Source: a virus | Length of the DNA stretch: 64,000 nucleotides | Virus record (IMG/VR): IMGVR_UViG_3300028581_000020 | Location: 40,528 to 104,527 of that record | Direction: 5' to 3' (one strand) | Shown here: piece after piece, positions 21,560-61,142 of the stretch | Position numbering within the stretch: position 1 is the stretch's first letter | Layout of the letters: every line of letters begins with the position of its first letter | Notes under the pieces: generated by a model | The model's input: the letters and a program-made list of their open reading frames with translations, nothing else | Databases searched by the model: none | What the model was told of the DNA's origin: nothing | Translations under genes and position numbers: made by a program

Positions 21560-22880
21560 TTAGTTTCCGACCCTCTCGACGTTGAAATAAGTATTTGCAG
21601 TAGTTCCCGAAATTGTGAGTGTGCTTGCCGAGTTGTTTCCAAGGCCGTATAGGAAGATTTCAACGTAATCCCCAGCATTCAACTGAAGCGTCGTGCTTCC
21701 ATTGAACGCGTTGATTGTCGTTGCGGCAGATGTTCTGTACCCAAACAGACGAGCGGACGCTCCGTTTTTGTAGAGGTAAAGCCCGTAATCAGATGCGAGC
21801 ACGTTAGCTGAGGCGAGCAGGACTGCGGAGCTTATGCGGTACTTACCCGATACGGGTGCAGTGAATCTGCTGTTTGCTGAGCTAAATGATCCGGTCGTGT
21901 CAAACACTGCGGAAGAAAAAGCTACCTTAACGAAACTATTATTCGTCGCGATCCCTGTTTGGTTAGACCCTCCAAGTGTTGCATCCATCGCGACTGTTTC
22001 ACTCGCCGCGATCTGCGACGGGCCGGAGATACGCGAGATTGAGAAGTAGTTGTCAACAACACTACCTCCGACATTCAATGCTCCACCTGAGTTTTGGAAA
22101 ACTTGAATCCCTACCGTGTCCCCTGCATTGAACAAATATTCTGTTGCACCATTCAAAAACGTACCTGCAGAAGCCGTAGGGTCGAATATGTATGCCAGTG
22201 TGCGGATATTGCTTCCGTTTACACGCAGACGAACCTCACGACCGTTCGTCGAGCTTGCGGCAAAACTTACTTGAGTCGTAATCCTATACCAGCCGGGGAC
22301 TGGAATCGTGTAGAGACTTGTACCGGTATTCCAAGCCCCGTGCGTGTCGCTGATTGCGGCATCGAACGCTACGAGTGTTCCGGTGCTGTCTGGAATTGAC
22401 TGAGTGGCTGCGCGGCCTGTAGTCATTGCCACGACGCGAGTGTCCGTCTCAGACGACATCTGCACTTGAGACGACCATCCGGTGATGGGGACGAGGAAAG
22501 ATCCGCCAAAAACCGTGTTGTTGGCCCAAGCCGTCCCTAACGTGCCATTGAAATAATTATCTGCCTGTTGGCTAATGATTGCGACCGTTGTTGGAGAACC
22601 TGTGGCTACGAGAATATTGCCTGACCATGGGGTTTTAGATGCGGTAAGCGCCCCCACAACAGAGTTGTTTACGGCTCTAGTTATGTCCATAGAAAGGCCG
22701 CTTGGCAGCGAAATAGAAACTGGTGATCCAGAATTTGTTCCAGAAGTAACTGTAAACATGACTTCAAGAGAATCACCTACGCGCCGATACTTGGCGATAG
22801 ATGCAGAAACAGTTCCTAGGCCAACGTATGTCGGAGTGTAGCTCTGCCAGTCCGTGACTGGCGTTCCCTGCGTGATGATC
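21560..22880. repeat. direct repeat copy 1 (shared fibre C-terminal module)
   Basis: Ungapped match to 59822-61142 at offset 38,262; identical over 21560-21599, 21605-21769 and 22431-22822; mostly synonymous differences elsewhere. Confidence 0.97.
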
Positions 22881-23500
22881 TGCGGAGAGACGCGGACGTC
22901 GGATAGCGCCATCGTGTAGGCGGATGCCGACGTGCTGCCAACGTGGATACAGAGGCGGTAGCTGGTCGAGTTAGAGGCTGCCTGGAAAGTGCCTCTCCAA
23001 CTTTGTTGAACAGTGGTGCTTTCAATCGAAGAAGGGGCCGGTTGAATCAAAATCGAGTTGGTAACATCGTAGATCCAGACCGAAAGATCGCTCGTGGCGT
23101 AAGTCCCGCTGACTACCTCGTAGGGGAACGTAATTTGCAGGACTTTACCTTTGTCGGAATTATCAATCGTGAATGCATTCGAGACCCCGTTGCCTTGCCG
23201 GTTGTTTGCATCCTTGACGAGGTTGAAGTCAGCTCCCGGACGAAGCGGCGTTGTGGTCGAGCGCGAGATCGCAAACGTAGGGCTACCGCCCGTGCAATCG
23301 ACCGGAGAGCTGGCTGCCGAATCAGCATACCCCGCCCATCCGAGAGTATCTTTTCTAGCGTAGGCGTTTTTTATGTAGTTGCGGGAAGAGCTTGATCCGC
23401 TGTCGAGGAAATCTGCATCTAAAAACCTAGGGGTTTGCGCAAACGTAGTGCTCGCCCCAAGGGCTGCCGCTGCCAGTAAGAGGCGTTTGAAAAATTTCAT
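21560..23500 (-). CDS. fibre / receptor-binding protein with signal peptide and tandem C1q-like domains
   Basis: Leader MKFFKRLLLAAAALGASTTFA-Q; C1q-like motifs YTIPVPGWY and FTAPVSGKY...LNAGDYVEI; AAGGAG RBS. Confidence 0.8.
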   Translation of the reverse strand: MKFFKRLLLAAAALGASTTFAQTPRFLDADFLDSGSSSSRNYIKNAYARKDTLGWAGYADSAASSPVDCTGGSPTFAISRSTTTPLRPGADFNLVKDANNRQGNGVSNAFTIDNSDKGKVLQITFPYEVVSGTYATSDLSVWIYDVTNSILIQPAPSSIESTTVQQSWRGTFQAASNSTSYRLCIHVGSTSASAYTMALSDVRVSPQIITQGTPVTDWQSYTPTYVGLGTVSASIAKYRRVGDSLEVMFTVTSGTNSGSPVSISLPSGLSMDITRAVNNSVVGALTASKTPWSGNILVATGSPTTVAIISQQADNYFNGTLGTAWANNTVFGGSFLVPITGWSSQVQMSSETDTRVVAMTTGRAATQSIPDSTGTLVAFDAAISDTHGAWNTGTSLYTIPVPGWYRITTQVSFAASSTNGREVRLRVNGSNIRTLAYIFDPTASAGTFLNGATEYLFNAGDTVGIQVFQNSGGALNVGGSVVDNYFSISRISGPSQIAASETVAMDATLGGSNQTGIATNNSFVKVAFSSAVFDTTGSFSSANSRFTAPVSGKYRISSAVLLASANVLASDYGLYLYKNGASARLFGYRTSAATTINAFNGSTTLQLNAGDYVEIFLYGLGNNSASTLTISGTTANTYFNVERVGN

Positions 23501-23509
23501 ATCTCTCCT

Positions 23510-26500
23510 TTAGATTCCGTTACGAGCAATTTCGACAACTGCGGCAAGACCCGCATCCCAACGAAGACGAATGATGGAGCCCGCTTGCCCGCGCCAATCC
23601 CCCTGCAGGAGGACGGTCGAGGATGCGGCTAGGTCACAGTAGTTTGCGTTCGAGGTCCCGAGGATTTCAATCTCAGCTCCGTCAACCATACTCGAGGTCG
23701 TGATCGTGAACGTCTGAGCCGAGCCCCCCGTGTACCTAAAGCGCTGTGCCGGAGAATTCGTGGGCGTAATCGAGGAGCCGGTGAAGTTCGACTGATCGGG
23801 CGTCTTTGCTCCGCCGGTAGATAGCACCACATCCCAGCGCGTATCCGTCGTGTTGTAGACGAGCAGTGCGCCCTCGTTGAGCTTCAGCACGAGGTCCCGT
23901 GCCTGCGGGCAACGGATACGGTTTGCGGAAGTAGATCCCGCCCCCTGATGGCTGATCGTCACATCTGCGGTAGCGGACGTGTTCACAACCCATAGCATTC
24001 GCGGCGAACCGCCCCCTGAAATCCCACCAACTGTGCGTGCAGTGGCGGGAGCCAGACGGAACACGGTGATTCCCGTTGAGGTTACGTCATCGGTTGTGCC
24101 GGTCGCGGTCGAGTCGTCTACGTCGATAGCGAGGGTGCCGTCTAAGTGCAGTGTCTCAGCCGGGGATGCTTTGTTGACGCCCATCCGCGAGGTCGCAGTC
24201 AGTGTAAGCATTTCGACCGGAGTCGTTGATGCGTCGGGCTTCACGAAGAATCCGAGATCGGCGCCCTTACCGTTGGTTGTGCCGACTCCGCGCAGGATGG
24301 CGCGGATGTAGCCTACCAGGCGAGTACTGGCCGAAGGGGAAGTGCCGTTGTTAAGCGAGAAGAATTGCAGAATTCCTGCGATGTCGCTTGCTGCCGGGCT
24401 TGCGCGGTTGTTGCCGAGTGCTAGTGCGCCGTAGGAGTTCGCACCTGTCGCGTCGCCCATCACGTTCACGCGGCCTTCGGTCGTAACCGCGGTGCCGATC
24501 GGATCATCGCTCGTCGGAGTGCTCCCGAGAGTTAGCCGGAAGTTTTTATACCAGCGGGCAATCTCGATGTTGTTCACCCGGAACGGGATTTTGAAATCAT
24601 CGATCGTACCGAAGAACTTCTCAGCCAGCACCGTGTTGCCATCGAGCGTCCAACCGGATCCGCCGCCAGAGCCAGAGCCAGATCCGCCCACCACCTGCCA
24701 GCGGCTTGATGCGGTCTCGTAGTAAAGAATGACGGCGGCACCGTCGGCCATTGCTATGGCCGCGCCCGTTCCCGTGCGGATACGGTTTGCAGCGGTGCCG
24801 CCCGTGTCGTCGTTGAGGTTGACGGATGCGCCCGTGCGGTTGATGAGAACCAGGAACGTGGCATTTGGCGGCGCCGGAATCATGTCGATCGAAGTCAGCG
24901 ACCCGTCGGTAACAAGCAAGCTCGTCTTGGTCGGAGTCGCAAGCGTGGCGTTTGCGCCGGTCGCGGCTGCGTCCGTCTGCTCAGATCCCTGAAGCGTTGC
25001 CAAGGCGCGCAGGGCTGCAACAAAGCTCTTAGCTCCGCCGAAACTCTGTGCCGCGGTGCTGACCGATCCGGGGTTGGTTGCGTCTGCCGGCTGAATCGTA
25101 AGGGTGTCTGCCACAAGCGTCGCGCCAGACGTGCCTGGAGTAGACCCAAAAGTCGCAAGCGAGAGGGAGCTTCCGCCAGCACCTTGGAAACTGCGCCAAG
25201 TGCCGCTCGTCATACAGAAGAAAAAGACTTTGGAGCCACTGGCCAGCGCAAAGGCAGCGTCGGCGGCACCCGCGTCGATCGCCTCGCCCGAGGCCGGGAA
25301 CACGTCGCAAGAGGCAGCGCCCGAGTTCTGCACGTAAAGCTGCATGCCCGCGACTGCCGCGGGGAGCTTGACTGAATCGTTTGCGGTGGCGCACACGCTC
25401 ACGCGGTTTTGCTGTTTAGCAAGCTGGGTTGCGGAAGCCTGTCCGCCGCCCGCAAACGCGGTGATTGTGTCGGCAGCCGAGAACATCACGTAGGCTTGCG
25501 CAATGATGTTGTTTGCGAACGTCTTCACACCCGCGATCGTTTGCGCGATGGCGGTGAGTAACCCCGGCTGGGATCCGTCTGCCGGCTGCAGGGTGAGGAC
25601 TTGGCCTGAGAGCGAGGCGCCGTTTGCAGAGGGGGAGCTGCCGACGGCTGCAAGCGACACATCGCCTGAGTTCGTTCCCGCGATGTCAGCGTCACTAGAG
25701 AAAGTCAGCGAACGCGCGGCGTTTTTGAGATCGATCGTGAGGTCACGATCGGCGTCCTGCGTGACGCTACTCGTGAAAATGAAGCGCGAGAACCAAGACG
25801 TGGACGTTTCTTTGATCGAAACACCCGTCACGAATTTCTTCAAGCCCGCAATCAACTGCGTGAGAGTTGAGACGCCGCCGGGGTTGGTTGCATCTGCCGG
25901 CTCCATGTTTAGCACAGCACCAGAGAGCGTAAGGCCGTTTGCGTTCGGGGCCGTGCCAAATCCTTGCAGGGTGACGGTCGCGGGACCGGCAGGACCAACG
26001 GCGCCGGCAGGACCCGGGGGGCCTGCGATACCCAAGTACTCGGACGGATCACGCGCCTGCACGCCGGTACCGTCATCTGAGATTGAGAGAACTTTACCGG
26101 CGTTGATTGCGAGGTCGGGGAAAGCCTTATCCCGATCAGGCGAGGTGGAACCAAAAAGTAGCGCCCGCCGCATGCGGCCGACCACTTCCTGTACTTGCTG
26201 CACGATACGATCAAGCGTGCGCTCGTTCGTCTCAGGCGGGAAGATCCCCGTCGAAATGTAATCCGTTTCCTGTGTGACGGGCGTCACTCGACGAACGAGT
26301 ACGCGCTGCGTGGCGGTCGGAGTCGAAACTGTGACTACCGCACTACCAGGGTCGCCGCCCGAGATTGAATACTGCCCGGGAGCTGTGAGCGTTGTCTCGG
26401 TGACTGCTGTCGGCACCGTGTAGTCGCGTAGGATGACTTGCACCTGCGAGTTGGCAGTGAACGCAAAGGGGATTGCGAATGAAGTCGTAACTCCGTCGCC

Positions 26501-26539
26501 CTGATAAATCTGCTCGGTCGTCGTGTTAGAGATCGTCAT
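23510..26539 (-). CDS. tail fibre protein (T7 gp17-like N-terminal anchor)
   Basis: YQGDGVTTSFAIPF...RRVTP...ERTLDRIVQQVQE anchor; short collagen stretch; three ~47-aa repeats. Confidence 0.9.
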   Translation of the reverse strand: MTISNTTTEQIYQGDGVTTSFAIPFAFTANSQVQVILRDYTVPTAVTETTLTAPGQYSISGGDPGSAVVTVSTPTATQRVLVRRVTPVTQETDYISTGIFPPETNERTLDRIVQQVQEVVGRMRRALLFGSTSPDRDKAFPDLAINAGKVLSISDDGTGVQARDPSEYLGIAGPPGPAGAVGPAGPATVTLQGFGTAPNANGLTLSGAVLNMEPADATNPGGVSTLTQLIAGLKKFVTGVSIKETSTSWFSRFIFTSSVTQDADRDLTIDLKNAARSLTFSSDADIAGTNSGDVSLAAVGSSPSANGASLSGQVLTLQPADGSQPGLLTAIAQTIAGVKTFANNIIAQAYVMFSAADTITAFAGGGQASATQLAKQQNRVSVCATANDSVKLPAAVAGMQLYVQNSGAASCDVFPASGEAIDAGAADAAFALASGSKVFFFCMTSGTWRSFQGAGGSSLSLATFGSTPGTSGATLVADTLTIQPADATNPGSVSTAAQSFGGAKSFVAALRALATLQGSEQTDAAATGANATLATPTKTSLLVTDGSLTSIDMIPAPPNATFLVLINRTGASVNLNDDTGGTAANRIRTGTGAAIAMADGAAVILYYETASSRWQVVGGSGSGSGGGSGWTLDGNTVLAEKFFGTIDDFKIPFRVNNIEIARWYKNFRLTLGSTPTSDDPIGTAVTTEGRVNVMGDATGANSYGALALGNNRASPAASDIAGILQFFSLNNGTSPSASTRLVGYIRAILRGVGTTNGKGADLGFFVKPDASTTPVEMLTLTATSRMGVNKASPAETLHLDGTLAIDVDDSTATGTTDDVTSTGITVFRLAPATARTVGGISGGGSPRMLWVVNTSATADVTISHQGAGSTSANRIRCPQARDLVLKLNEGALLVYNTTDTRWDVVLSTGGAKTPDQSNFTGSSITPTNSPAQRFRYTGGSAQTFTITTSSMVDGAEIEILGTSNANYCDLAASSTVLLQGDWRGQAGSIIRLRWDAGLAAVVEIARNGI

Positions 26540-29500
26540 AGCGTAGGCTCCCCTTTTCGTTTCGCCCGTTGCTGGGTTTTAAGCATAGTTGATTCTTCGT
26601 CTTTTGAAATACCCATGATGGACCGAATTTGTGCACGCGCGTTTTCAACCACGTCACGGTCCACCGTTTGCCCAAGCGCGGTCGAGCGCGCAACTTGAGC
26701 ACCCAAGAATTGTTCCCGGATATCCGGGAATTCCAGGAGTAGTTGTTGTTTTGCAGCGGCGCGGTACATGCCCACCATTTCTGCAATGACGGTGCGTTTG
26801 TTTTCGTCGGTACGGTAGGCCTCCGGGATGCCGGGCTTCCCATCCAATTGCCGAGCGTAGTCGGATTTAATGAGCGCCCCAAGCATGTCCTTAAGGTTTG
26901 GAACCTTTTGGTCCCGTTCCTTAGGTGCTTTTTTGATCTCATCGATCGAGCCAAGGCCGTGCCCCGCCGCAAGCTCTACAAATCGATTGTACTGCTCACT
27001 GGTTAGGTTCACGGGGAAGCTGTCTTTGCCGTCCACGTAGGCGAACGAGATATTGCGGGGAGGCATGTCCACCATGAGGTGGCTCTGCCCGGCAAGGGGC
27101 TTCGGCTTGACGAGCGGACCCGATACTCCCAGGCGAACAAGCTCTTCCCGGATGGGATCGTCTTTTGCAGGGGAGTACTTGAACGGGTTCACCAGGGCGA
27201 TCGCGGAGAGGATCGCAGGGCCCGTTCCCTGCGGGTGTACAACCTCTTCACCGAAGAGGTTTAGCTGCGGCATGCCCACACCAAACGAAGCTTTCAGGGG
27301 CTTCACCACTGACTCCCAAGCGCCGTCCTGTGCCCCAAGCTTTGTGTCGATTTTCTTATCCCCAAAAGCTCTGTTTACTTGCTTGAACAGGTTGGGCGTA
27401 AGCGACGAGGCGAAGTTATCTGCCAGTTTTTTCCAAGCTGACGTGGGCGCACCGTCCCGAAGCAACTCGAGCACTTTTCCGAAATCGTCGGTGAGTACGT
27501 CGGGAACTGCCGCGGAGGCAATGTGCGCGGCCCCCGCAAGTGTGAGGTCTTCAAACCCCTGCATGTCCCCATCCGGGCTATCCCAGTAGGCTGCGAGCTC
27601 ATGTAGATCGGCGGCAATACCGAGCAGGGTCCCTACGCCTCCCAAGGCTTGGTAAGAGAAATACCCGTCCCCAACCTTGATAGAGTTAGGTTGCCAGCCA
27701 GTGTCCTCGAGCGCTTTGCGCGCCTGCCAGTTTGTGGGACCGGCGCCCGTGATGACGCCCTCAACGGCGAGTAGCCCACCAAGCCCCAGCATCGACGTGC
27801 CTACTGCTACCTTACCGAGCGCTACGTCCCGAGCGGTACCGCCGGAAGCCATCGCTTCCTTGAATCCGGGGGTGAGCATCGCAAGGCCAGGGAATCGCTG
27901 CAACACTTGATCCGTTTGGTTGATGTTGATTTTGGTAAACGGAACCAGCATGCGGAACATCGGGTTCTGCGAGATTCCGTCGTATAATTTTGTGAATATC
28001 TCCGGGGTGTAGTTCAGCGTGCGCTGCCCCGCCTCACGCGCGGCCATCATGTTGATGTGTGCCGGCGGGAACTGCGTCATCTCCTTCACCATTTTTGTGT
28101 AGGCATCGCCCGTAAGGCCCGCTGCCCGGGCGGTGCGAACGGCAAGAGCGTTGGTTTGCATGCGATAGATCGTAGCCTTAGATGCTACGTCGGCGGCGTT
28201 CAGCGCACGCCCAGGAATACGAATTCCAGAGCCGATGAAATCCATCGCGTCGGCCCAGACGCCATGCAGCCCGTTGGCGGCGCCAGTCAAAGTAGAGGGA
28301 CGCTCAAGCGCCATCAGCTTCGAGCCGCCCGCAGTTAGAAGGGGATCGCTCGTGCGCCACGCCTTGAAGTAAGCAATCCAACCTTCCTTGAGGCCCTGCC
28401 CAAGCGACAGCACCGTAGCGTTAGACTCGGCGAGTGAAACGGCCTCACTTTGCACCTTGTTTGCAAACGCCGTGTAGGTTGCGTCAATCTCTTCCGCTGG
28501 CATCCCACCGAAGAAAGACGAAAGTTCATCCACACTAAGACGTGTGGCAGGGTTACCTTTGCCGCCTACGATTGAGCGCATTTTCTGGACAGCCCAAGCC
28601 GCGTACTTCTCGGGGATTAATCCAATGGTGTTCACCAGGTTGTTGGCGACGTTTACGGTCTGCGTGAGCGGCCCGGAAAGTAAGCTCATAACCCGCAGCT
28701 CTTCGCCCATCGCTGCGAGGTGCCCAAGTCTCGAGCGATTACTCATCCAGGAGAAGTGCTTCACCTTCTCTGCGGGGGACATCCTAGACATCATGTCCAC
28801 GATTGTTGCCGCTTGCTTCTGAATCTGCTCCTTACCGCCAGCGACGGTAAGCACGTCCTTTGCAGCGAACATCTCTGCAACGGGGAACGCAGTCACATTC
28901 GACAAGTCCGCCGCACGCGTGGCAAGACCGGCTTCCTTTGTCCCGGCTTTAAACAACGCCATGGAATCAAGCGTGAGCATCTTCGATCTCTCGAAAGCAG
29001 CAATTACCTCATCGCTCGCATTCGGAGCAGCGGCAGCTATCGCTTTCTCAACACTGTCCTGCACGGCGTTAACAAAGAAAATTCCAGCACCTTTTACCTC
29101 AACGGCATTCCACCCTTGGCCAGGCACCTTAGTAGTAAGCCGGCTAACATCTTCGCCGAGGAGCTTGAACGCATCAGCAAGTACCGACTCATCGCTAACA
29201 ACTCCGCGAGCAATCGTCTCAAAGCCTTCCTTGTTCGCGGCTACAATATTTGAAACCACGCGGCGGAAGTCATCGACAGACCCCATCGTGGGCACGTTAT
29301 CTAGATTGAACCGCTTCGTGGCCTCGGTCGCCGGAGCCTGCAATTCTTCTAGGCTGAGCATACGCAAGTTCTGCGCTTGGCGCATTACCGTGGGCTGCTC
29401 AACTACCCGGGCTGCGTCGAGAACACCACGCCCTTCGGCCACTGCAGCGGAAACCGCAGATGCGTCTGCCGTGATTGTCTCCCCGCCCGAGTTTACAAGG

Positions 29501-49037: not shown

Positions 49038-49043
49038 TCCGGT

Positions 49044-49072: not shown

Positions 49073-49108
49073 GTAAGTTTCTGTCCGGGGAGCGGAGGGG
49101 ATCGTCAT

Positions 49109-51481: not shown

Positions 51482-51497
51482 AGTGGGTGGAGCGGCA

Positions 51498-52970
51498 ATG
51501 ATCGAATTCGATAAATTATGGGACCACCAAAAGCGAGCCGTCGCGCTCGCCATGCAGCAGCGAGACTTCGCGCTGTTCCACGACATGGGCGCGGGCAAGA
51601 CGGGCACGATGATCAATATCCTGCGCCGCCGCTATGGCGAGGCCGGGCGCCTGCGCCGCACGCTGATCGTCTCGCCGCTCATCACGCTTGATAACTGGAA
51701 GAAAGAATTCGGGCAATTCTCGAAGGTGGATCCCCGGCACATTCTTATCTTGAAAGGCGCGGGCCGTAAGCGTGCAAAGGATTTCATGAAGTTTGTTTCG
51801 GACCCCGTGACCGAACGACTTGTTTTCAACCGCGTGGTCATCATGAACTACGAGTCGGTTCAAATGAAGGAACTGTATGACGCAATCAAAGCCTGGAATC
51901 CTGAGATCATTGTTTTTGATGAAGCTCATCGACTCAGAAATCACCAGTCAAAACGCGCGCGAGCTTGCGCGAATCTGGCTGACATCGCAAAGCACCGATA
52001 TCTGCTTACGGGATCGCCGATCCTTAATTCAGCAATGGACGTGTTCTTCCAGTACCGCTGTCTCGACCTTGGAGACACGTTTGGGCAGAACTTTTACGCC
52101 TTCCGAAACCGATACTTTGAAGACCGAAACTCTGGCTGGGCTAGTAAGCCTGGTTACTTCCCCGACTTTGAAGCTCGTCCTGAGGCTTTTGCCGATCTCC
52201 ACGCGCGCATGTACAAAGACGGCAGAGGGCTTGCCCGCGCCCACCGAGTGATGAAGAAAGACTGCCTTGACCTACCCCCACTGGTGAAGACCAAGATCGA
52301 AGTAGAGCTCTCGCCGGATCAACGGAAGATGTACAAGGAAATGTCAGACGAGTTCCTGACATTTGTTGAGCGCGAGAAACAAACGGGCACACCACTAGCA
52401 GTGGTGGCACAGCTTGCAATCACGAAGGCGCTCCGCTTGCAGCAGATCGTAACCGGCTTCTGCAAGGCGGAAGACGGAGTTGAGTATGAGATTGCAGGGG
52501 GGAATCCCAGGCTCGAGGCGCTAGAGGAATTGCTTGAAGACTTGGCTCCGAACGGCAAAGTAATTGTGTGGGCATGCTTTAAGCAGAACTACCAACAGAT
52601 TGCACGCGTGTGTGACAAGCTGAAGCTCCCTTACCGGATGATCCATGGTGAGATTAGGAACGCTGATAAGCAGATAGCCATGGAAGAGTTCCGCAAAGAC
52701 GAATCGATCAAGGTGATGATTGCAAACCAGGGGGCTGCAGGCATTGGCGTGAATTTGGTTGAAGCCCCGTATTCTGTGTTTTTCTCCCGGAACTTTTCGC
52801 TTGAGCAAGATACTCAGGCCGAGGCACGCAACTATCGCGGTGGATCTGAGATGCATACAAGTGTGACTCGCTATGATATTGTTGCGCGAAATAGTATTGA
52901 CGAGTTAATCGCCGACGCGTTAGCAGGTAAGCAGAAAATCGCAGATACCATTCTCGATTGGAAAATATAA
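51498..52970 (+). CDS. SNF2-family (SF2) helicase
   Basis: DMGAGKT, DEAH, LTGSP, QAEARNYR. Confidence 0.92.
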   Translation: MIEFDKLWDHQKRAVALAMQQRDFALFHDMGAGKTGTMINILRRRYGEAGRLRRTLIVSPLITLDNWKKEFGQFSKVDPRHILILKGAGRKRAKDFMKFVSDPVTERLVFNRVVIMNYESVQMKELYDAIKAWNPEIIVFDEAHRLRNHQSKRARACANLADIAKHRYLLTGSPILNSAMDVFFQYRCLDLGDTFGQNFYAFRNRYFEDRNSGWASKPGYFPDFEARPEAFADLHARMYKDGRGLARAHRVMKKDCLDLPPLVKTKIEVELSPDQRKMYKEMSDEFLTFVEREKQTGTPLAVVAQLAITKALRLQQIVTGFCKAEDGVEYEIAGGNPRLEALEELLEDLAPNGKVIVWACFKQNYQQIARVCDKLKLPYRMIHGEIRNADKQIAMEEFRKDESIKVMIANQGAAGIGVNLVEAPYSVFFSRNFSLEQDTQAEARNYRGGSEMHTSVTRYDIVARNSIDELIADALAGKQKIADTILDWKI

Positions 52971-52979
52971 GGAGCGGAC

Positions 52980-53450
52980 ATGGCAAGTGAATTGGATTCC
53001 TGGGACGAAGCGACTCCCGTGATTGAGGTCTCAACGCAAGAGCTAGATGCTCTCGTGCAGCGAATGGACACCCTCTGGGACGAGTCAGAGAAGGTAAAGA
53101 AGCTGGCAAGTGAGGCTCGCGCGGCCTACGATGAGGTCGAGGCACGCGTGCTCGCGATGCTGAAAGCCGCTGGAAAAAAGAGCTACATCGTTGATGGACT
53201 TGGCACCGTGTCGATCACCAACAAATACATGATTACAACGCCCAAGGGGATTGAGGAAAAGAAACGGCTCTTTGCCTACATCAACAAGGAGCACGGGGAA
53301 GAGGGGCTATATGGCTTACTCACGATCAATTCCCAGACGCTCAATAGCTTTGTGAACGCAGAGCTTGACCGCAAACCTGAAGTACAAATTCCCGGACTCG
53401 ATGCACCGACTCACCGTGAGTCTCTTTCGTTCCGGGCAAAAAAGAAGTGA
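52980..53450 (+). CDS. conserved replication-module protein
   Basis: AAGGAG RBS; coiled coil then INSQTLNSFV. Confidence 0.65.
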   Translation: MASELDSWDEATPVIEVSTQELDALVQRMDTLWDESEKVKKLASEARAAYDEVEARVLAMLKAAGKKSYIVDGLGTVSITNKYMITTPKGIEEKKRLFAYINKEHGEEGLYGLLTINSQTLNSFVNAELDRKPEVQIPGLDAPTHRESLSFRAKKK

Positions 53451-53457
53451 GGAAGAA

Positions 53458-54246
53458 ATGGCAACCAAGAAGTCCCCGAAATCAGATACCCCTGTGAGCC
53501 AAGCCCCGGCAGTCGTTGAAGTGAACGGGGCGCTCGTATCGGCAGAGGAGCAGGCAGCCTGGGGCGCGAGTCCCTTCCTGTCGAGCCGTGACACGATCAT
53601 CCCGAAGATTCTGCTCATGCAGCCGATGTCAAAGAAAGTGCTGGCAGACGAGGCAGCCTTCGGTGAGCTCCGCGATTCGGTCACAAACGAGGTCTACGGG
53701 TCTGATAAGAAATCGATCGAGATCATCCCCTTCCACCTGCAAACGGTGTGGGTTGAGCACGAGAAGAACGTGGACCCTAAGACCGGCAAAGAGGACTTGA
53801 AGTACCTCCGCACGGTGCCGCTCTCTCCGCAGAACGACACGCTGCCCCTCGATGAGCCCAACTTAAAGCGCGTGCGCACGATGCAGTTCTACGTGCTGCG
53901 CCCGGAAGAGTTGGGATCCGGGATCCCTAAGGTGATCGCCTTTCGTATCACTTCAATCAAGGCCGGAAAGAAACTGGCAACACAAATGTATGTGACGAAC
54001 CGGGCAGCCGGGCTTCCCCCTCCGGGCAGGGTGATGCGGCTTTCTGTCTCCCGCCAGACCAATGGCAAGGGCACGTTTGCGGTGATGGATGTCGAGCCTG
54101 TTCGCGCTGCCACCAGTGAGGAGCGCGCTTCTGCTCTTAAGTGGTTCAAGATTATCCAGACGGATGCGGCTGTTAAGGTCGATGATTCGGATGTGGCAGA
54201 GGTCGAGACTCCGGTCGAAGACTCGGGCACTACCGGACAATTCTAA
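53458..54246 (+). CDS. putative single-stranded DNA-binding protein
   Basis: IPKILLMQPMS; acidic tail ending in Phe; replication-module position. Confidence 0.55.
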   Translation: MATKKSPKSDTPVSQAPAVVEVNGALVSAEEQAAWGASPFLSSRDTIIPKILLMQPMSKKVLADEAAFGELRDSVTNEVYGSDKKSIEIIPFHLQTVWVEHEKNVDPKTGKEDLKYLRTVPLSPQNDTLPLDEPNLKRVRTMQFYVLRPEELGSGIPKVIAFRITSIKAGKKLATQMYVTNRAAGLPPPGRVMRLSVSRQTNGKGTFAVMDVEPVRAATSEERASALKWFKIIQTDAAVKVDDSDVAEVETPVEDSGTTGQF

Positions 54247-54255
54247 GTAACGTTG

Positions 54256-54291
54256 GGGCCCCTGGGGGTAAGGGAACAGGGGCCCGTTTTT
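54256..54291 (+). terminator. intrinsic terminator
   Basis: GGGCCCCTG / CAGGGGCCC stem followed by TTTTT. Confidence 0.6.
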
Positions 54292-54307
54292 ACTAAAGAG
54301 GGCATGT

Positions 54308-55075
54308 ATGCGAGTGCTTTGCATTGACTTTGAGACGACACACAAGGACCCGCTACAAGCCCGCCCGTGGGAGTTTGCCGCGTGCGTGGCTACTAACAAT
54401 TCGTGGGCATTTGCACAGGAGGGGCAATATACTGGGCGCATGTGGGCAGCTGATTACCCTGAGTTGTCGCCCGAGATCCAACGTGTCTGCAAGCTGCCGA
54501 GTGAGCGTAAGAACTTTGTCGGCTCTCCCAGCACCAAAGAAGTTCTTGCGAATCTGCACTCCCTGGCAGGGCAGGCAGATTACCTGATGGCTTATAACGC
54601 CGAGTACGACCGGACGGTGTGGGAGCAGGAATGCATCCGGCAGAAGGTGCCCTTCCCTACCACCCCCTGGCTGTGCGCCTACTCTGATGTCCCGTACCCT
54701 GACTATTACCGCTGCCGGCAGCTCTCGCATCTGGCGCTTGACCATGGGATCAAGGTCGATCCCGAGGCACTGCATGGAGCCCTGGGAGATGTGAGACTGA
54801 TGGGCCAGCTACTCAGCCGAGGTGGATACACCCTGGAAAAAATCCTGGAATATAAGCAGGAGCCCTGGGTGTACATGAAGGCGGTGTTCAATGCGTTTGG
54901 CCCTGGAGGCCAGGAGCTCAAAGAAGCGGCAAAGGCAGACGGCTACGGCTGGCAGCAGTGCCGCGGAGATACGGTTACGTTCATGAAGACTTGGGTTAAG
55001 CGAGTGAAGCTATCCAAGTTTGAGGAAGAGAAGGCTCGCACGCTGCCGTTCAAGCGTGAAACTTTGGAGGCCTGA
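54308..55075 (+). CDS. DEDDh 3'-5' exonuclease
   Basis: IDFET, AYNAEYD, HGALGD. Confidence 0.9.
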   Translation: MRVLCIDFETTHKDPLQARPWEFAACVATNNSWAFAQEGQYTGRMWAADYPELSPEIQRVCKLPSERKNFVGSPSTKEVLANLHSLAGQADYLMAYNAEYDRTVWEQECIRQKVPFPTTPWLCAYSDVPYPDYYRCRQLSHLALDHGIKVDPEALHGALGDVRLMGQLLSRGGYTLEKILEYKQEPWVYMKAVFNAFGPGGQELKEAAKADGYGWQQCRGDTVTFMKTWVKRVKLSKFEEEKARTLPFKRETLEA

Positions 55076-55281
55076 TGCATACGAAAAATCTGAAACAACA
55101 ACCTGCCCGCAAGGGGAATACTCCCCGCCGCAAACCGCTAACGGTCCGTATCGATCGCACGCTACACGACTTTGTGACCCGCTCAGCACATGCCAAGGGC
55201 GAGTGCGTGGCCGTGACGGTCTCGCGCATCTTAAAGTCCTACCAGCGGAGCGTCGGCCGCGCGAAGGCACTGCACGCGTGA
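55075..55281 (+). CDS. ribbon-helix-helix (Arc/CopG-like) protein
   Basis: KPLTVRIDRTLH...VAVTVSRIL; coupled to both neighbours. Confidence 0.55.
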   Translation: MHTKNLKQQPARKGNTPRRKPLTVRIDRTLHDFVTRSAHAKGECVAVTVSRILKSYQRSVGRAKALHA

Positions 55282-57110
55282 TTGTCACCGACTCCAATTT
55301 TGAAGAGGTCGTAGGCCTGCTCTCCCGCAGCGGGGAGTACGGCCTGGACTGCGAAACCACGGGGCTTGATTTCAAGGCTCGCTTGTTTTCGATCATCATT
55401 GCGAGTCGTGAACAGTCCTATTATTTCAATTTCCACGACTACGGGGACGGGACGCCGGTACTTCCGCGCTCACGTATCCGGGCAATGCAGCCCGTCTTCC
55501 TCGGGCAATCGATTTTTTACATTTCGAATGCGAAGTTTGATCTCCGAATGCTGCGGCACGAAGGGCTTGAGGTAGAGTCCCACGTTTTCTGCACAAACGC
55601 ACTGGGCCGGGTGCTTAAGAACAATTACTTCGGGCCGAAGGCCTACTCGCTAGAATCCTGGGCTCAGCGGCTTGGCGACGCCAAGGACGATGCCGTCATG
55701 GACTACGTGGTTGAGCACAAGCTCTACTCGGTTGAGAATATTCCAGGGAAGAAAAAAGAATTTAAGCGGATGCGCTTTTGGGAAGTCCCCGCGAGCATCA
55801 TGATTCCCTACGGGGAGAAGGATGCTGAGCTTCACTTGAAGGTCGGATCGCATATTGCAGCGGGGATTAAGTCGCTGAACGCTCCCGGATCTCCGGGAAA
55901 TATTCAACGGCTGGCTGAGAACGAGGCGCAGCTAACAAAGGTCTGCTTTGACATGGAGTGGGCAGGCATCCGCATTGATCGTGATTACGTAAGGAAGGCA
56001 CAGGCCTATGAAGAAGAGCAAATTTCCCGCTTCACCGAACGTTTCCGTGAGTTATCGGGTGAGACGTTCCGGGACTCGTCGAGTTTTCTGGCCGGTGTCT
56101 TCAAGCAAGCCGGCTACACCGACTTGCCCACAACCGACAAAGGAAACCCAAGCTTCACCGACGACAACCTCGACGATCTCGGAGGAGACCTTGCTCAGAG
56201 CGTGCGAGATATTCGCTTTCATGCCAAGCGAGTCGGAACTTATTACTCCTCTTTTTTGCACTACGCCGACGGAGAGGACCGAATCCACCCAGACATGAAG
56301 CAATCGGGCACTGAGACGGGACGCTTCAGCTACGCTGATCCGAACCTACAGAACGTGCCGAAAGAGGAGAACACCACACATGCTACCACCCCTTCTATCG
56401 TACGCTGTAGTTTCGTGCCTGATCCTGGTGACGTGTTTGTTATGGTGGATTACTCACAGCAGGAGTTTCGACTCATGCTCGACTACGCCGGAGAAACCAA
56501 GCTCATCGATGCCATCAACCAGGGGGCAGACGTTCACCAAGCCACTGCAGATATGTTGGGCATCTCGCGACAATATGCGAAGACAGTTAACTTTGCGCTT
56601 CTCTACGGAGCAGGACCGGCAAAGATGGCTCGAATGCTTTCGATACCTGAGTTCGAGGCACGGGATCTCCGCGCGCTTTACTTCGGAAGGCTTCCTCGAG
56701 TGCAGCGCTTTATCACGCAAGTCATCGATCGTGGTCGAGCCCGCGGTTACGTGGTTAATTGGGCGGGTAGGCGTTGCCACATCGATTCACCCGACTACGC
56801 CTACATTCTCCCCAATCACCTGATCCAGGGAGGAGGCGCGGATGTCATCAAGTTCGCCATGGTGCAGATCCACGCGCTCTTGCAGGAGAAAACCGGCGGG
56901 CGGTCGAGCATGCGGCTGCAGGTCCATGATGAGGTGGTCTTCCAATTTAACCCTCGCGATCTCGAGCTAGTTCCAGAAATCCGTCGTATCATGGAGGGGA
57001 TCTATCGTCCCTTCAACGGGATGAAACTTACCACGTCGTGTGACCACTCCTGGAAATCCTGGGGGGCACCCGACAAAGAGAAGGGGCTCCCTGGGGATGA
57101 GACGGCCTGA
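55278..57110 (+). CDS. family A DNA polymerase with 3'-5' exonuclease domain
   Basis: LDCETTG, NAKFD, TGRFS..PNLQN, DYSQQE, RQYAKTVNF, QVHDE; GTG start 55278. Confidence 0.95.
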   Translation: MIVTDSNFEEVVGLLSRSGEYGLDCETTGLDFKARLFSIIIASREQSYYFNFHDYGDGTPVLPRSRIRAMQPVFLGQSIFYISNAKFDLRMLRHEGLEVESHVFCTNALGRVLKNNYFGPKAYSLESWAQRLGDAKDDAVMDYVVEHKLYSVENIPGKKKEFKRMRFWEVPASIMIPYGEKDAELHLKVGSHIAAGIKSLNAPGSPGNIQRLAENEAQLTKVCFDMEWAGIRIDRDYVRKAQAYEEEQISRFTERFRELSGETFRDSSSFLAGVFKQAGYTDLPTTDKGNPSFTDDNLDDLGGDLAQSVRDIRFHAKRVGTYYSSFLHYADGEDRIHPDMKQSGTETGRFSYADPNLQNVPKEENTTHATTPSIVRCSFVPDPGDVFVMVDYSQQEFRLMLDYAGETKLIDAINQGADVHQATADMLGISRQYAKTVNFALLYGAGPAKMARMLSIPEFEARDLRALYFGRLPRVQRFITQVIDRGRARGYVVNWAGRRCHIDSPDYAYILPNHLIQGGGADVIKFAMVQIHALLQEKTGGRSSMRLQVHDEVVFQFNPRDLELVPEIRRIMEGIYRPFNGMKLTTSCDHSWKSWGAPDKEKGLPGDETA

Positions 57111-57423
57111 GTCAGAGAAGGCGTTTGCAGCGAGGGTCAGAAAAGAAATCGAGGCGATGCCCCGTACGTGGTGCTTTAAGCCCTTCACCGGCTCGGTACG
57201 TGGGATCCCGGATCTCATTTGCTGTGTGTCCGGGTGGTTTGTGTCGCTTGAGTTCAAGAAAGCCGGCGCTGCCAAGGACTCATCGAGAGAGAGGCTGCAG
57301 GAATATGTGGCCTCAAAGATTCGGTTTGCGGGGGCGCCCATTGCTGAGCACCGTGTGACCCCGGCTTCCTGGCCTGCGATTCGCGAGCGGCTTGTGCAAA
57401 TGGCGGGAGAGACTTTCTCTTAA
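57097..57423 (+). CDS. VRR-NUC / PD-(D/E)xK nuclease
   Basis: ESE...RGIPDL...LEFK...LQ. Confidence 0.8.
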   Translation: MRRPESEKAFAARVRKEIEAMPRTWCFKPFTGSVRGIPDLICCVSGWFVSLEFKKAGAAKDSSRERLQEYVASKIRFAGAPIAEHRVTPASWPAIRERLVQMAGETFS

Positions 57424-57848
57424 AGCCTGCGGTAATCGTAGTAGTCTTTTGAGAAGCACTTGATTCCGCTCATTTTCCAGATGTCGTCAACTCCGATGCG
57501 CTCCTCGACTTCGACCCGCTTGATACAGGCACCTAGGAAAGTGCGCATGCACTTGTACGTGTGGTGGAAAATGCAGGGAGCGTCCGCACAAAACAGGTAG
57601 CGCTTATCCGCAAACTTGCAGACGAAATCAGCACTGCGAAGCGTGCTACGCAGGAACGCGTCCTCTAGATCAAGCTTCCGGTACTCAAGCTTTAGGCAGT
57701 CGGTGCCTTTGACTTCCGAGCACCGGGTTGTGACAAGGCCCTTCTCGCTCTCGGATGCAATAAAGATTTGCCGCACGAGATCCGGGAACTGCGTGATGGA
57801 TCTCTCGGTTGCACATGCGGTAAAGAAAAGGGCCAGCAGGTATTTCAT
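57420..57848 (-). CDS. Cys-rich lipoprotein (possible o-spanin)
   Basis: MKYLLALFFTA-C lipobox; last gene of the lysis cassette. Confidence 0.55.
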   Translation of the reverse strand: MKYLLALFFTACATERSITQFPDLVRQIFIASESEKGLVTTRCSEVKGTDCLKLEYRKLDLEDAFLRSTLRSADFVCKFADKRYLFCADAPCIFHHTYKCMRTFLGACIKRVEVEERIGVDDIWKMSGIKCFSKDYYDYRRL

Positions 57849-58129
57849 TTCGTGAGCTCAAGCCCAGCCGAGAGGTACTTGTTGAGCGCTGCCTCTTCGA
57901 CCTTCAGTAGATCGTAGAGCTCAGCGATCAGAGCCATGTCCTGCTTATCTTGTTTCTTTTCTTCCGCCAAAATGTCCATCTGCACTTTACGCCAGCGCTC
58001 GATCGGCTCACGCTTGAGCTTGACCAGCCCCTTCTCGGCAAAAATCTCGATGATCGAGAGCGCCGTGTTGAGTGCCGTCATGCCCGGGATGAGCGAATCC
58101 GTTGCTGGCAGGGGTACAACAATGTCCAT
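57845..58129 (-). CDS. hypothetical lysis-cassette protein
   Basis: 94 aa, ATGA coupled. Confidence 0.55.
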   Translation of the reverse strand: MDIVVPLPATDSLIPGMTALNTALSIIEIFAEKGLVKLKREPIERWRKVQMDILAEEKKQDKQDMALIAELYDLLKVEEAALNKYLSAGLELTK

Positions 58130-58135
58130 GGCAGC

Positions 58136-58276
58136 TTAGGCTTTGCCGAGGAATTTCTTCAGGCCGTTGATGACAAGCTGAACAATGCTGTTTGACTTGA
58201 AGGCCGGGATCAAAGCAAGAGCTTCAGACACCGCGAGAAGCGCACCGAGAATGAGAGCGATCGTCGAATTTTCCAT
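58136..58276 (-). CDS. 46-aa hydrophobic protein, putative holin (not in the ORF track)
   Basis: MENSTIALILGALLAVSEALALIPAFKSNSIVQLVINGLKKFLGKA*; GGGGA RBS. Confidence 0.6.
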   Translation of the reverse strand: MENSTIALILGALLAVSEALALIPAFKSNSIVQLVINGLKKFLGKA

Positions 58277-58293
58277 TTTGTTCCCCCGAAACG

Positions 58294-58788
58294 CTAGGTT
58301 TTCCTAGCTACCCAAGGATCCAGGAACCCCACAATGGAGAACCTTGGAAACCCTTTTAAGTTACGCTTGACACGATAGACCCCATCGCCGTCCGAATCAA
58401 GGCCGGAAGGGTTTACATTTCCCTCGACCGTCAAAAAATTACCCTTGCGATCGGGCGAGGTCTCAACGATGCCGGCATGCCCGCGCCCTGAGTCATCCGT
58501 TCGCTTCCAAATGATGATGCGCCCGGGGCTGGCCTCTTTTCGCTGGTAAAGCTTGTTGCGATTCCAGAGGGTGAGGCAGTGCTCTGAAAATTGGATGTGA
58601 TCCAGGCCCGACTGCTCGGCTACTTTCTGCAGGACAGTGCACACAAACGCTGCACACCAAGGCTCGCCCTGCGCCACGCCGTCTACCGTCTTCTGGAAGC
58701 CTTCAATGATGTCGCCGGCATTGGCGCCTGACTCGTGGACGCCGAGATAGATTCTAGCCATGTTCACGGTTGCTAGGTGCAGATCCAT
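58294..58788 (-). CDS. CHAP-domain endolysin
   Basis: GVHE..N.G, PWCAAFV (Cys), GHAGIV (His), TVEGN. Confidence 0.9.
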   Translation of the reverse strand: MDLHLATVNMARIYLGVHESGANAGDIIEGFQKTVDGVAQGEPWCAAFVCTVLQKVAEQSGLDHIQFSEHCLTLWNRNKLYQRKEASPGRIIIWKRTDDSGRGHAGIVETSPDRKGNFLTVEGNVNPSGLDSDGDGVYRVKRNLKGFPRFSIVGFLDPWVARKT

Positions 58789-59075
58789 TAGCGTATCCGC
58801 TTCAGCTCTCCGCTGATCTCGCCCAGCTTACGATTCATGTCTTGGAGGGTTGCCTGCAACCGTTCCTCTTTATCATCTAGCCGGGTTTCGATCACGCCAA
58901 ATCGAGTGACACTTGCGGCCTGCGCCTCGGCCTGGGCGTACTTCAGCGTGTTGATGTCGGCTCTAAGCATCGTAAACCAAATCGTACACGGGATCACGAC
59001 GGCGCTTAGAAACCAAACCAGGCCTCGGAGCAGTTGCCCCGAAACCCCTGCGATCTTGTTGTGCCATTCGGCCAT
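58788..59075 (-). CDS. single-TM coiled-coil protein (holin/antiholin-like)
   Basis: One TM then a coiled coil; TAATG coupled to the endolysin. Confidence 0.5.
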   Translation of the reverse strand: MAEWHNKIAGVSGQLLRGLVWFLSAVVIPCTIWFTMLRADINTLKYAQAEAQAASVTRFGVIETRLDDKEERLQATLQDMNRKLGEISGELKRIR

Positions 59076-59078
59076 GAG

Positions 59079-59822
59079 CTATCCCCCGCAGACAGCCATT
59101 CTAAACGGATTTTTCGGATCGCGGTAGTAGCCTTTGACCCAGTTTTCTCGTGGCCCGCGGTTTGTTTCATGCACTTTTATGCAGCCATCAATCCACGCTT
59201 TCCCCCACCAGGGGAGCTTCACTTTCCGTAGGAATTTGATGCGGAGATCAGCCAGCCCCCAGTTTTTTGAGAGCCGCAGCCCTAGCCCCAGCCAGAGAAG
59301 CGAGATCGGATCGGGCTCCTCACCTGCTGCCAGCTCAAGGATTGCCCAGTCACCAGGCTGAAGCATCTCAGTCCACGACCAACGTCCGGGATCGCGGGGG
59401 TTGTACTGAAACCAGTGCTTGCGCCCATACTCGAGAATCGCCCAGGCATGCCCTGAATTGTAGTGGTGCGAGAGGATTGCAAGCGACACCACGTTGTCGT
59501 GCGACTGCCCGATGTCAAGCGGCACGAGGTCGCCTTCTGCATTCTCAAATCTGAGCTCGTGCCCAGGCCACCGCCCGTGGAGCCCCGGCTCAATCTCAGT
59601 CAGCTCCATGTGGCGCTTAAAAGCCAGGAACCCTTCCACTGATCTCGCCTCCGGGTCAAGCTCAAGGAGCCCCTGCGCCAGCGCGTAGCTCGCGTTCTCG
59701 TTGGTTGAGCGCACAGGATATTTCGGACTCAACGGGGGAGCTAGGTTGCCCGGCTCATCTTCAAACAAACCCCCGCCATCGGGAGCAATGTAGCGCTCGA
59801 CGAAGGCGGAGAGGTGGTCCAT
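59079..59822 (-). CDS. hypothetical protein (Trp/His-rich, enzyme-like)
   Basis: 247 aa, GC-rich like phage B; NEN and SHDN motifs; TAATG overlap with the fibre stop. Confidence 0.7.
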   Translation of the reverse strand: MDHLSAFVERYIAPDGGGLFEDEPGNLAPPLSPKYPVRSTNENASYALAQGLLELDPEARSVEGFLAFKRHMELTEIEPGLHGRWPGHELRFENAEGDLVPLDIGQSHDNVVSLAILSHHYNSGHAWAILEYGRKHWFQYNPRDPGRWSWTEMLQPGDWAILELAAGEEPDPISLLWLGLGLRLSKNWGLADLRIKFLRKVKLPWWGKAWIDGCIKVHETNRGPRENWVKGYYRDPKNPFRMAVCGG

Positions 59823-61142
59823 TAGTTTCCGACCCTCTCGACGTTGAAATAAGTATTTGCAATAACTCCCGAAATTGTGAGTGTGCTTGCCGAGTTGTTT
59901 CCAAGGCCGTATAGGAAGATTTCAACGTAATCCCCAGCATTCAACTGAAGCGTCGTGCTTCCATTGAACGCGTTGATTGTCGTTGCGGCAGATGTTCTGT
60001 ACCCAAACAGACGAGCGGACGCTCCGTTTTTATATAGGTAAAGCCCGTAATCGGATGCGAGCACGTTCGCGGAGGCAAGTAGGACTGCAGCACTTACGCG
60101 ATACTTACCTGACACCGGGGCCGTGAACCGACTATTGCCGGAGCTAAACGATCCAGTTGTATCGAAGACTGCGGAAGAGAAGGCCACCTTAACGAAACTA
60201 TTGTTCGTTGCTACTCCTGTTTGGTTAGCCCCTCCAAGTGTTGCATCCATCGCGACTGTCTCACTGGCCGCGATCTGCGATGGGCCGGAGATTCGGGAGA
60301 TGGAGAAGTAGTTGTCAGCAACACCTCCTCCGACGTTTAATGCTCCACCTGAGTTTTGGAAGACTTGAATCCCTACCGTGTCCCCTGCGTTAAACAAATA
60401 TTCTGTTGCACCATTCAAAAACGTACCTGCAGAAGCCGTAGGGCCGAATATGTATGCCAGTGTCCGGATATTGCTTCCGTTTACACGCAGACGAACCTCA
60501 CGACCGTTGGTCGAGCTTGCGGCAAAAGCTACTTGAGTCGTAATCCTATACCAGCCAGGGACTGGAATCGTATAGAGACTTGTACCGGTATTCCAAGCCC
60601 CGTGCGTGTCGCTGATTGCGGCGTCGAAAGCTACCAGTGTTCCGGTACTGTCTGGAATCGACTGAGTGGCTGCGCGGCCTGTAGTCATCGCTACGACGCG
60701 AGTGTCCGTCTCAGACGACATCTGCACTTGAGACGACCATCCGGTGATGGGGACGAGGAAAGATCCGCCAAAAACCGTGTTGTTGGCCCAAGCCGTCCCT
60801 AACGTGCCATTGAAATAATTATCTGCCTGTTGGCTAATGATTGCGACCGTTGTTGGAGAACCTGTGGCTACGAGAATATTGCCTGACCATGGGGTTTTAG
60901 ATGCGGTAAGCGCCCCCACAACAGAGTTGTTTACGGCTCTAGTTATGTCCATAGAAAGGCCGCTTGGCAGCGAAATAGAAACTGGTGATCCAGAATTTGT
61001 TCCAGAAGTAACTGTAAACATGACTTCAAGAGAATCACCTACGCGCCGATACTTGGCGATAGATGCAGAAACAGTTCCTAGGCCGACAAATGTAGGAGTG
61101 TAGCTCTGCCAATCCGTAACAGGCGTTCCCTGCGTAATAATT
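59822..61142. repeat. direct repeat copy 2 (shared fibre C-terminal module)
   Basis: Matches 21560-22880; identical blocks 59867-60031 and 60693-61084. Confidence 0.97.

Follow-up and report, generated by a model that had tools for sequence, protein, structure and literature searches.

Mosaic tail fibres have been described since the early 1990s in phages P2, Mu, P1 and lambda, and in the T-even phages. Chimeric contigs have been documented in short-read viral metagenome assembly using simulated viromes (PMC4247695). Here we analyse a window of 64,000 nucleotides that forms the end of a linear IMG/VR metagenome record of 104,527 bp (IMGVR_UViG_3300028581_000020, positions 40,528–104,527), in which one phage appears to lie inside the fibre gene of another. 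We favour, with a probability of about 0.87, the reading in which a figure-eight path through the assembly merged two independent phages, A and B, that co-occur in lake water, into one chimeric contig.

Layout of the two phage units

A GC-rich podovirus unit of 38,262 bp (B, approximately 57% GC) sits inside the AT-rich phage A (approximately 41% GC), flanked by two ungapped direct copies of a fibre-tip module of 1.26–1.34 kb (Table 1). GC content is 0.40–0.47 at positions 1–21500 and 61200–64000 and in the 40 kb upstream, and 0.53–0.61 at positions 23000–59800. The GC3 of the tip, 0.49, is foreign to both A (0.31–0.35) and B (0.62–0.68). When the contig is resolved at the repeat, two uninterrupted co-directional late operons result. 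The podovirus B measures about 38.3 kb. A would have a minimum length of 66 kb here, rising to 86 kb if a contig of 124,122 bp shares the layout. The right arm of A encodes a protein of 1,659 residues and further fibre-like genes; the early arm of B includes a 73-residue open reading frame (ORF) of (S/D/Y)-G dipeptide repeats (48071–48292).

Neither tyrosine integrase (PF00589) nor serine resolvase (PF00239) had a match in the whole 104.5-kb record, with positive controls, and the arms of A and B found no match by megablast among 50,697 phage records. A close relative of A was not obtained, its 516-residue fibre-like protein having only distant relatives in IMG/VR. The anatomy described in the first-pass annotation, comprising the repeats, the GC step, the intact hybrid ORFs and the lack of an integrase, proved right in every detail.

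Table 1 Features of the window, with strand and composition
Feature	Positions	Strand	Remarks
Phage A late region, right arm	1–21558	-	~0.41 GC, GC3 0.31–0.35
HNH endonuclease of A	20445–21080	-	within 1–21558
Small basic ORF of A	21356–21557	-	directly after fibre stop
Fibre-tip copy 1, 3' part	21559–22430	-	variant t1; 70 sites differ from copy 2; contiguous with A flank
392-bp block, copy 1	22431–22822	-	identical in both copies
Bn, N-terminal part of B's second fibre	22823–23500	-	GC3 0.62
Phage B structural arm	23510–43684	-	gp17-like fibre, internal virion proteins, tail tube B, major head protein, portal, large terminase
Phage B early/replication arm	44413–57110	+	primase/helicase, helicase, DNA polymerase
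End of B's late operon	57420–59822	-	includes 247-aa gene, its start overlapping fibre stop (TAATG)
CHAP endolysin of B	58294–58788	-	within 57420–59822
Fibre-tip copy 2, 3' part	59821–60692	-	variant t2; terminal cluster encodes VI
392-bp block, copy 2	60693–61084	-	identical to copy 1
An, N-terminal two thirds of A's fibre	61085–62671	-	GC3 0.34–0.35
Phage A genes upstream of its fibre	62672–64000	-	
Homing/HNH endonuclease of A	63216–63803	-	within 62672–64000

The fibre-tip repeat and its probable path through an assembly graph

The two copies of the repeat (21559–22822 and 59821–61084) align without gaps at an offset of exactly 38,262 and differ at 70 of 1,264 nt (94.5% identity); the repeat is confirmed as real and is far beyond chance. 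Runs identical between the copies measure 41 nt (21559–21599), 165 nt (21605–21769) and 392 nt (22431–22822). The 392-bp block is followed by a transition zone of 76 nt, extending to 22898 and 61160 and holding 19 mismatches, past which identity is 54–68% out to about 23350 and 61610. At the opposite end, homology stops one base beyond the stop codon. Both fibre ORFs are uninterrupted and lie on the minus strand (21560–23500, 646 residues; 59822–62671, 949 residues) and are 87% identical across their C-terminal 607 residues, with a tip that carries BclA_C and C1q domains. The TAATG stop/start overlap at 59824–59820 opens the next gene of B, and an ATG at 21557 starts the small next ORF of A. 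The terminal cluster of variant sites in t1 (21600/21603/21604) encodes TT. The start of Bn resembles a signal peptide.

Both phages would thus carry a tip of the C1q/BclA type, with approximately 94% nucleotide identity and a shared identical block of 392 bp. This block is presumably longer than the assembler k-mer and most read-pair inserts, and would for that reason collapse to one graph node with entries An and Bn and exits t1 (to A) and t2 (to B). The reported contig would then follow the path An, block, t2, all of B, Bn, block, t1 and the rest of A, using each edge once, with the switch between A and B placed at the copy-1 block. The real B would read Bn, block, t2 and B's next gene; the real A would read An, block, t1 and A's small next ORF. 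We infer both this A-to-A join and the behaviour of the assembler.

The structure is also exactly that of one crossover between two circles, and the first-pass annotation had put foremost a reversible cointegrate with the fibre gene as its attachment site, naming the assembler figure-eight as an equally serious alternative. Under such a scheme, cells infected by both phages would produce a subpopulation of true A::B molecules, formed when A recombines homologously, through the 392-bp block, with B in circular or concatemeric form. These molecules would occur alongside more abundant free B and would later resolve, at which step the 3' parts of the fibre tips would be exchanged. However, the graph would be expected to yield the same contig without any cointegrate, and the contig by itself is no evidence for any joined molecule. 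We regard a cointegrate of this kind as unlikely, given the depth and protein data below.

Depth of A and B across lake-water runs

Depth was taken as the k-mer depth of Logan contigs (k=31), and all runs holding the query are lake-water metagenomes from 2019, X1 being the probable source run. A and B are both present in every one of the 12 runs in which over half of the query is represented. In X1, A contigs have depths of 13.6–15.4x, including a contig of 8,096 nt spanning 13493–21588 at 15.4x, and B is represented by a 25-kb contig at 45.2x and a Bn contig (22793–23128) at 47.2x. The 392-bp block forms a separate contig of 392 nt at 59.5x, near the sum of 15.4 and 45.2, and a contig covering 21559–21769 has 61.3x, that is, A plus B. 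The comparison of depth inside and outside the repeat, proposed in the first-pass annotation, therefore gives a clear three-fold step, and the shared blocks reach the two depths added together. The ratio of B to A is approximately 2.9 in X1, 2.4 in X10 and 3.7 in X12, so A and B are neither equimolar nor in constant proportion. No more than one third of B can be joined one-to-one to A.

Depth also places t2 with B. The t2 letters (22331–22460) have 43.7x in X1, a B-like depth, although the contig attaches t2 to An. At the popped bubbles of the Logan graphs (21600–04, 22182 and 22202), the majority letters kept are those of t2 in X1, X10 and X12. In X12, where A is patchy at 0–3x, a contig of 936 nt runs from B's next gene (281 nt) into t2, with agreement at 58 of 58 variant sites, reaching 22213. 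By inference t1 belongs to A: its depth in X1 is 26.1x, well below the 45x of B yet above the 15.4x of A, an excess that is unexplained. A loose end at 22873 in the same run continues as the window from 61136 onward.

Since contigs of k=31 cannot phase the 392-bp block, the depths would permit true cointegrates up to the level of A (15x in X1). In X10, moreover, a contig of 761 nt bridges t1 (22311–22430), the block and Bn (to 23071) with 0 differences, thereby reproducing the copy-1 hybrid junction; with a depth of 3–6x and k=31, it may be an artefact of graph cleaning. A cointegrate of 104–124 kb would, from general phage biology, exceed the capsid of B about three-fold and the genome of A by 38 kb. 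Presumably too long to be packaged and inherited, it would be expected to be scarce, not to match the whole of A in abundance.

The co-occurrence in 12 of 12 runs, together with the lack of any recorded An-t1 protein, would also suit a stable nested phage, in which every A carries B in its fibre gene like a prophage while B also exists free. We consider this barely credible: integrase and resolvase are absent, the insertion would add 38 kb to the packaged length of A, and the hybrid mosaics differ between assemblies. Run X13 holds two 151-nt fragments of A without B-specific cover, which are too few to count and weigh only slightly against nesting.

Fibre proteins on other contigs

If the contig is an assembly chimera, resolving the two copies at the 392-bp block predicts the fibre of a free B. 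The protein P0005 is this predicted fibre, with 0 differences in 646 residues, and carries t2 throughout. It lies on a contig of 38,399 bp, which is the length of the B unit (38,262 bp) plus 137; the content of that contig beyond P0005 is deduced from these two lengths only. The free form of B that the first-pass annotation expected from resolution is thus represented by the exact resolved fibre protein. With the coverage step and t2 at B depth, it favours the figure-eight path; the coverage step and the free-B fibre leave the cointegrate headline of that annotation unsupported.

Bn is present in P0003, P0004 and P0005. P0003 (on contigs of up to 88,010 bp) and P0004 (124,122 bp) have the form Bn-t2-TT, and P0003 matches exactly the protein expected if the path switches in the 165-bp block. 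P0006 has the form An-t2-VI, which occurs on 4 contigs; if the 124,122-bp longest contigs of P0004 and P0006 are the same record, the two proteins would adjoin there and t2 would be used twice. The mosaic of these other assemblies combines a switch in the 165-bp block with a tip interior collapsed to the majority variant, such as graph bubble-popping produces. Bn-t2-TT beside An-t2-VI fits bubble collapse followed by traversal of the loop, and is not given by a single crossover.

Contigs with a cointegrate-like arrangement recur across several assemblies (104.5, 88 and 124 kb), and no free-A fibre (An-t1-TT) was recorded in the protein collection by near-length and shorter-length searches with the 949-residue fibre, a blank that does not amount to absence. 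Both points would agree with a true cointegrate. Together with the X10 bridge and the excess depth of t1, they count against a chimera. Searches with a 30-mer from the tip end (IMG/VR and JGI metagenome contigs) and with a degenerate pattern for all four junction combinations across the 392-bp block (IMG/VR) each returned only the contig of phage C, described below, and are uninformative on free A or B.

A third phage with the same fibre tip

Phage C (L003) is an integrase-bearing provirus that shares the fibre tip with A and B. Its fibre equals B on the 5' side of the 392-bp block and is identical to t1 on the 3' side, giving tracts with 0–1 mismatch of 698 nt between B and C and of 1,264 nt between C and the inferred A. 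In C the gene after the fibre is a homologue (72% identical) of the one that follows the fibre in B, and stop and start codons overlap in the same way, so the B-to-B gene order proposed here is natural. In X13 the C fibre region lies in a contig of 18.4 kb, and that run lacks B-specific cover and shows A in traces only. C suggested that copy 1 might be a natural B haplotype, with the switch in the last 41 nt of the gene; this was ruled out by the depths, the X12 contig and P0005, all of which show that B carries t2.

Among these otherwise unrelated genomes, only the C-terminal fibre domain is nearly identical, and the similarity breaks off at the stop codon on one side and at the domain edge on the other. 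This shows a real and recent horizontal swap of the receptor-binding tip among A, B and the temperate phage C, and the identical or near-identical tips imply that the exchange was very recent. A, B and C probably share a host receptor. Gene exchange, which the first-pass annotation had expected to stand even if the contig was an assembly chimera, does so and extends to a third phage.

Phage C, with break-points at the edges of the 392-bp block, shows that real recombination has taken place there, which speaks for cointegrates as well. A minority of real A::B cointegrates or recombination intermediates might accordingly form through the fibre-tip block, making the receptor-binding module a portable homology site at which unrelated phages could fuse, separate again and reassort their tips; we judge this improbable. 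The C fibre could be a fixed product of such an event, with B on one side of the block and the inferred A on the other.

Implications and comparison with known systems

On the favoured reading of an assembly chimera, a public viral record of 104.5 kb, rated 91% complete by CheckV, probably comprises two genomes, and the same probably applies to sister contigs, at least those of 88 kb and 124 kb. Such records should be split at the 392-bp block, since host, taxonomy and genome-size statistics derived from them would be wrong. In that case P0001, P0003, P0004 and P0006 probably do not represent true alleles of A and B, although the C-terminal 522 residues of P0001 form a genuine haplotype that occurs in phage C. 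The locus illustrates cleanly how a receptor-binding module common to two phages can create the persuasive appearance of one phage nested in another. The biology that stands is modest but well founded: in one lake, the large AT-rich phage A, the 38-kb podovirus B and the provirus C, which bears an integrase, have identical or near-identical tips.

Among known systems, integrase-mediated prophage insertion differs in its recombinase, a gene class (PF00589, PF00239) absent from this record. A Campbell-type cointegrate is alike in that direct repeats flank one complete partner, resolution regenerates both, and a site-specific recombinase is not needed; it differs in that its partners have equal depth, against a ratio of B to A of 2.4–3.7 here, and in that the product here would be too long for packaging by either partner. 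Chimeras formed at inter-genome repeats in de Bruijn graphs share with this contig an identical block at both junctions (the longest of 392 bp, with another of 165 bp), a coverage step with the block at the summed depth of two genomes, an insert of exactly one genome length, and mosaics that differ between assemblies. The exchange of tail-fibre modules known from P2, Mu, P1, lambda and the T-even phages is alike in that high identity is found only in the C-terminal tip of unrelated genomes. The present case differs in that no invertase or diversity-generating element is involved, and in that three partners of differing lifestyle, from a single lake, share tracts with 0–1 mismatch.

Anatomy of the contig

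The window forms the final 64 kb of a linear viral record of 104,527 bp in IMG/VR, in which unit B, with a GC content of approximately 0.57 and a full podovirus gene set, lies within the AT-rich phage A (approximately 0.41 outside the unit). An ungapped direct repeat, offset by exactly 38,262 bp, encodes the C-terminal part of two fibre genes, with BclA_C and C1q domains. The copies differ at 70 of 1,264 nucleotides and contain identical runs of 41, 165 and 392 nucleotides; a 76-nt transition zone adjoins the repeat, and past it the fibre genes are just 54–68% alike. Homology ends one base past the fibre stop codon. In copy 2 this stop codon and the start of B's 247-aa gene overlap (TAATG); in copy 1 the ATG that comes after it opens a 67-aa phage A ORF. 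No integrase or resolvase was found in the whole 104,527-bp record. These results on the repeat, fibre ORFs, GC contrast, gene set and integrase or resolvase confirm the anatomy described in the first-pass annotation in all points.

Features of the window
Feature	Coordinates	Strand	Description
Repeat copy 1	21559-22822
Repeat copy 2	59821-61084
Fibre gene, copy 1	21560..23500	-	646 aa; repeat is C-terminal part
Fibre gene, copy 2	59822..62671	-	949 aa; repeat is C-terminal part
392-bp block	22431-22822 and 60693-61084		identical in both copies
149-aa ORF	18444..18893		phage A
HNH endonuclease	20445..21080		next to 516-aa fibre-like gene
73-aa ORF	48071-48292		B's early arm

With An and Bn denoting the N-terminal parts of the A and B fibres, and t1 and t2 the tip variants 3′ of the block (t1 in copy 1, ending TT; t2 in copy 2, ending VI), the contig reads A's next gene, t1, block, Bn, the body of B, B's next gene, t2, block, An.

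The product of the 73-aa ORF is almost entirely a series of (S/D/Y)-G dipeptides, encoded by 6-nt units that repeat every 12 and 18 nt. Among sequences borne on genomes, those closest to the tip (protein, 21563–23128; L087, L089 and L090) are in Bdellovibrio and Bdellovibrionales genomes, at 33–39% amino acid identity, and one short match bears the name Pseudobdellovibrionaceae; such similarity may hint at the host or at shared adhesin folds.

Depth and linkage in lake metagenomes

Fourteen lake-water metagenome runs (2019) carry the stretch wholly or partly, and four of these were compared with window 11561–31560 as Logan k=31 contigs. In X1, probably the source run, the A arm has a depth of 13.6x (6,167-nt contig) to 15.4x (8,096-nt contig) and the B arm 45.2x (25,023-nt contig), with the 392-bp block on its own contig at 59.5x and a contig of 21559–21769 at 61.3x. 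In this run the shared sequence thus has the depth of both phages added together, and B outnumbers A threefold. This difference inside versus outside the unit goes against the reversible phage–phage cointegrate that the first-pass annotation had put forward as one of two equally serious readings, the other being an assembly artefact. The A and B arms are at approximately 2.8x and 6.7x in run X10, and 1.3x and 4.7x in X12.

In X1, the t2 letters at 22361–22430 are at 43.7x, Bn at 47.2x and t1 (21770–22130) at 26.1x, and the majority letters kept where Logan popped bubbles (21600–04, 22182, 22202) are those of t2 in X1, X10 and X12. A 936-nt contig of X12 runs from B's next gene (281 nt) into t2, which it matches at 58 of 58 variant sites, and a further contig runs on from t2 into the block. 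Loose ends at 21559 continue as B's next gene (window 59791 onward), and that at 22873 as An (window 61136 onward). Because of these depth, bubble and linkage data, t2 is assigned as the tip of the abundant genome B, though the contig joins it to An, and the A/B switch lies within the 392-bp block. At 26.1x, t1 in X1 is deeper than phage A itself (15.4x); another t1 carrier may be the source, and the shared-block depth leaves little room for a third carrier.

Contigs of phage A in X10 and X12 depart from the window at 18193, read different letters, and return to it at 18894; some A strains carry an alternative cassette in place of the 149-aa ORF. Where the fibre-like gene borders the HNH endonuclease, two X1 contigs diverge from the window (20376 and 20400), which may reflect presence/absence polymorphism of the homing endonuclease.

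Origin of the joint contig

The contig is best explained as a figure-eight assembly chimera of two phages, with a probability of approximately 0.87. B would be a closed loop joined to A's path at a single collapsed node, and the walk An-block-t2-B-Bn-block-t1-A would take each edge once. The 392-bp block would exceed the assembler's k-mers and most short-read inserts, and the 165-bp block would be short enough for read pairs to span; phase in the window's contig is held across the latter and lost at the 392-bp block only. Resolving this walk gives back two unbroken co-directional late operons, and also the fibre/next-gene order seen independently in phage C. Short-read virome assembly is known to yield chimeric contigs (PMC4247695).

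That A and B are truly joined in one molecule is very improbable. Contigs of k=31 cannot phase 392 bp, so the depth is compatible with cointegrates at most as abundant as A. A low-depth contig of X10 runs from t1 through the block into Bn, and the free-A fibre, An-t1-TT, was not found among recorded proteins in near- and shorter-length searches with the 949-aa fibre, a result that does not itself establish absence. A joint molecule of 104–124 kb would presumably be packageable by neither phage, so any real cointegrate would be a rare intracellular intermediate.

Fibre proteins in other assemblies

The 90% cluster of the 646-aa fibre has five members (P0001–P0005).

Recorded fibre proteins and their contigs
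Protein	Composition	Contigs
P0001	Bn-t1-TT, window's own	2, longest 104,527 bp
P0002	fibre of phage C	longest 140,601 bp
P0003	Bn-t2-TT	2, longest 88,010 bp
P0004	Bn-t2-TT with K119Q, T124S	1, 124,122 bp
P0005	Bn-t2-VI	1, 38,399 bp
P0006	An-t2-VI, 949 aa, separate cluster	4, longest 124,122 bp

By script, P0005 matches every letter of the fibre predicted by resolving both copies at the block, and its contig has the length of one B unit plus 137 bp; P0003 is exactly what switching within the 165-bp block would give. If one record holds both P0004 and P0006, the 124-kb contig would have the t2 interior in both tip copies. This is not a product of a single crossover, and fits an assembler that first collapses the bubble's minority branch (t1) and afterwards goes through the collapsed repeat twice.

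The two substitutions of P0004 (window 23129–23141) are C-like or A-like residues exactly where C–B identity stops, and X1 has a loose end nearby, at 23121; this border is one of further microdiversity or recombination.

Exchange of the fibre tip

The 247-aa gene of B has a single relative in IMG/VR, in phage C, a 34.5-kb provirus with an integrase, cut from a 140.6-kb metagenome contig (L003; IMGVR_UViG_3300028569_002826, Ga0247843_1000200). The C fibre (in L003:8124-10711) differs from window 23128..21559 solely at base 22612 and is followed, with the same TAATG stop/start overlap, by a 72%-identical homologue of the 247-aa gene, which may be a fibre assembly partner. B's other genes have no match in C. 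Run X13 holds phage C alone, on an 18.4-kb contig at 19.1x with C's private base at 22612. C's fibre was first read as making copy 1 B's own haplotype, which is ruled out by the depth and linkage data giving t2 to B.

The tip has a GC3 of 0.49, compared with 0.31–0.35 in A and 0.62–0.68 in B, and is foreign to both. C is identical to B over 23128–22431 and, save base 22612, to t1 of A over 22822–21559; the two tracts overlap over the 392-bp block. GC3 and the identity tracts show that the receptor-binding tip has passed very recently among three phages of different type, with break-points that map to 23128/23129, 22822/22823, 22430/22431 and the fibre's stop codon. Such an exchange represents no new kind of element: tail-fibre mosaicism has long been known, and the exchange among A, B and C is an instance of it.
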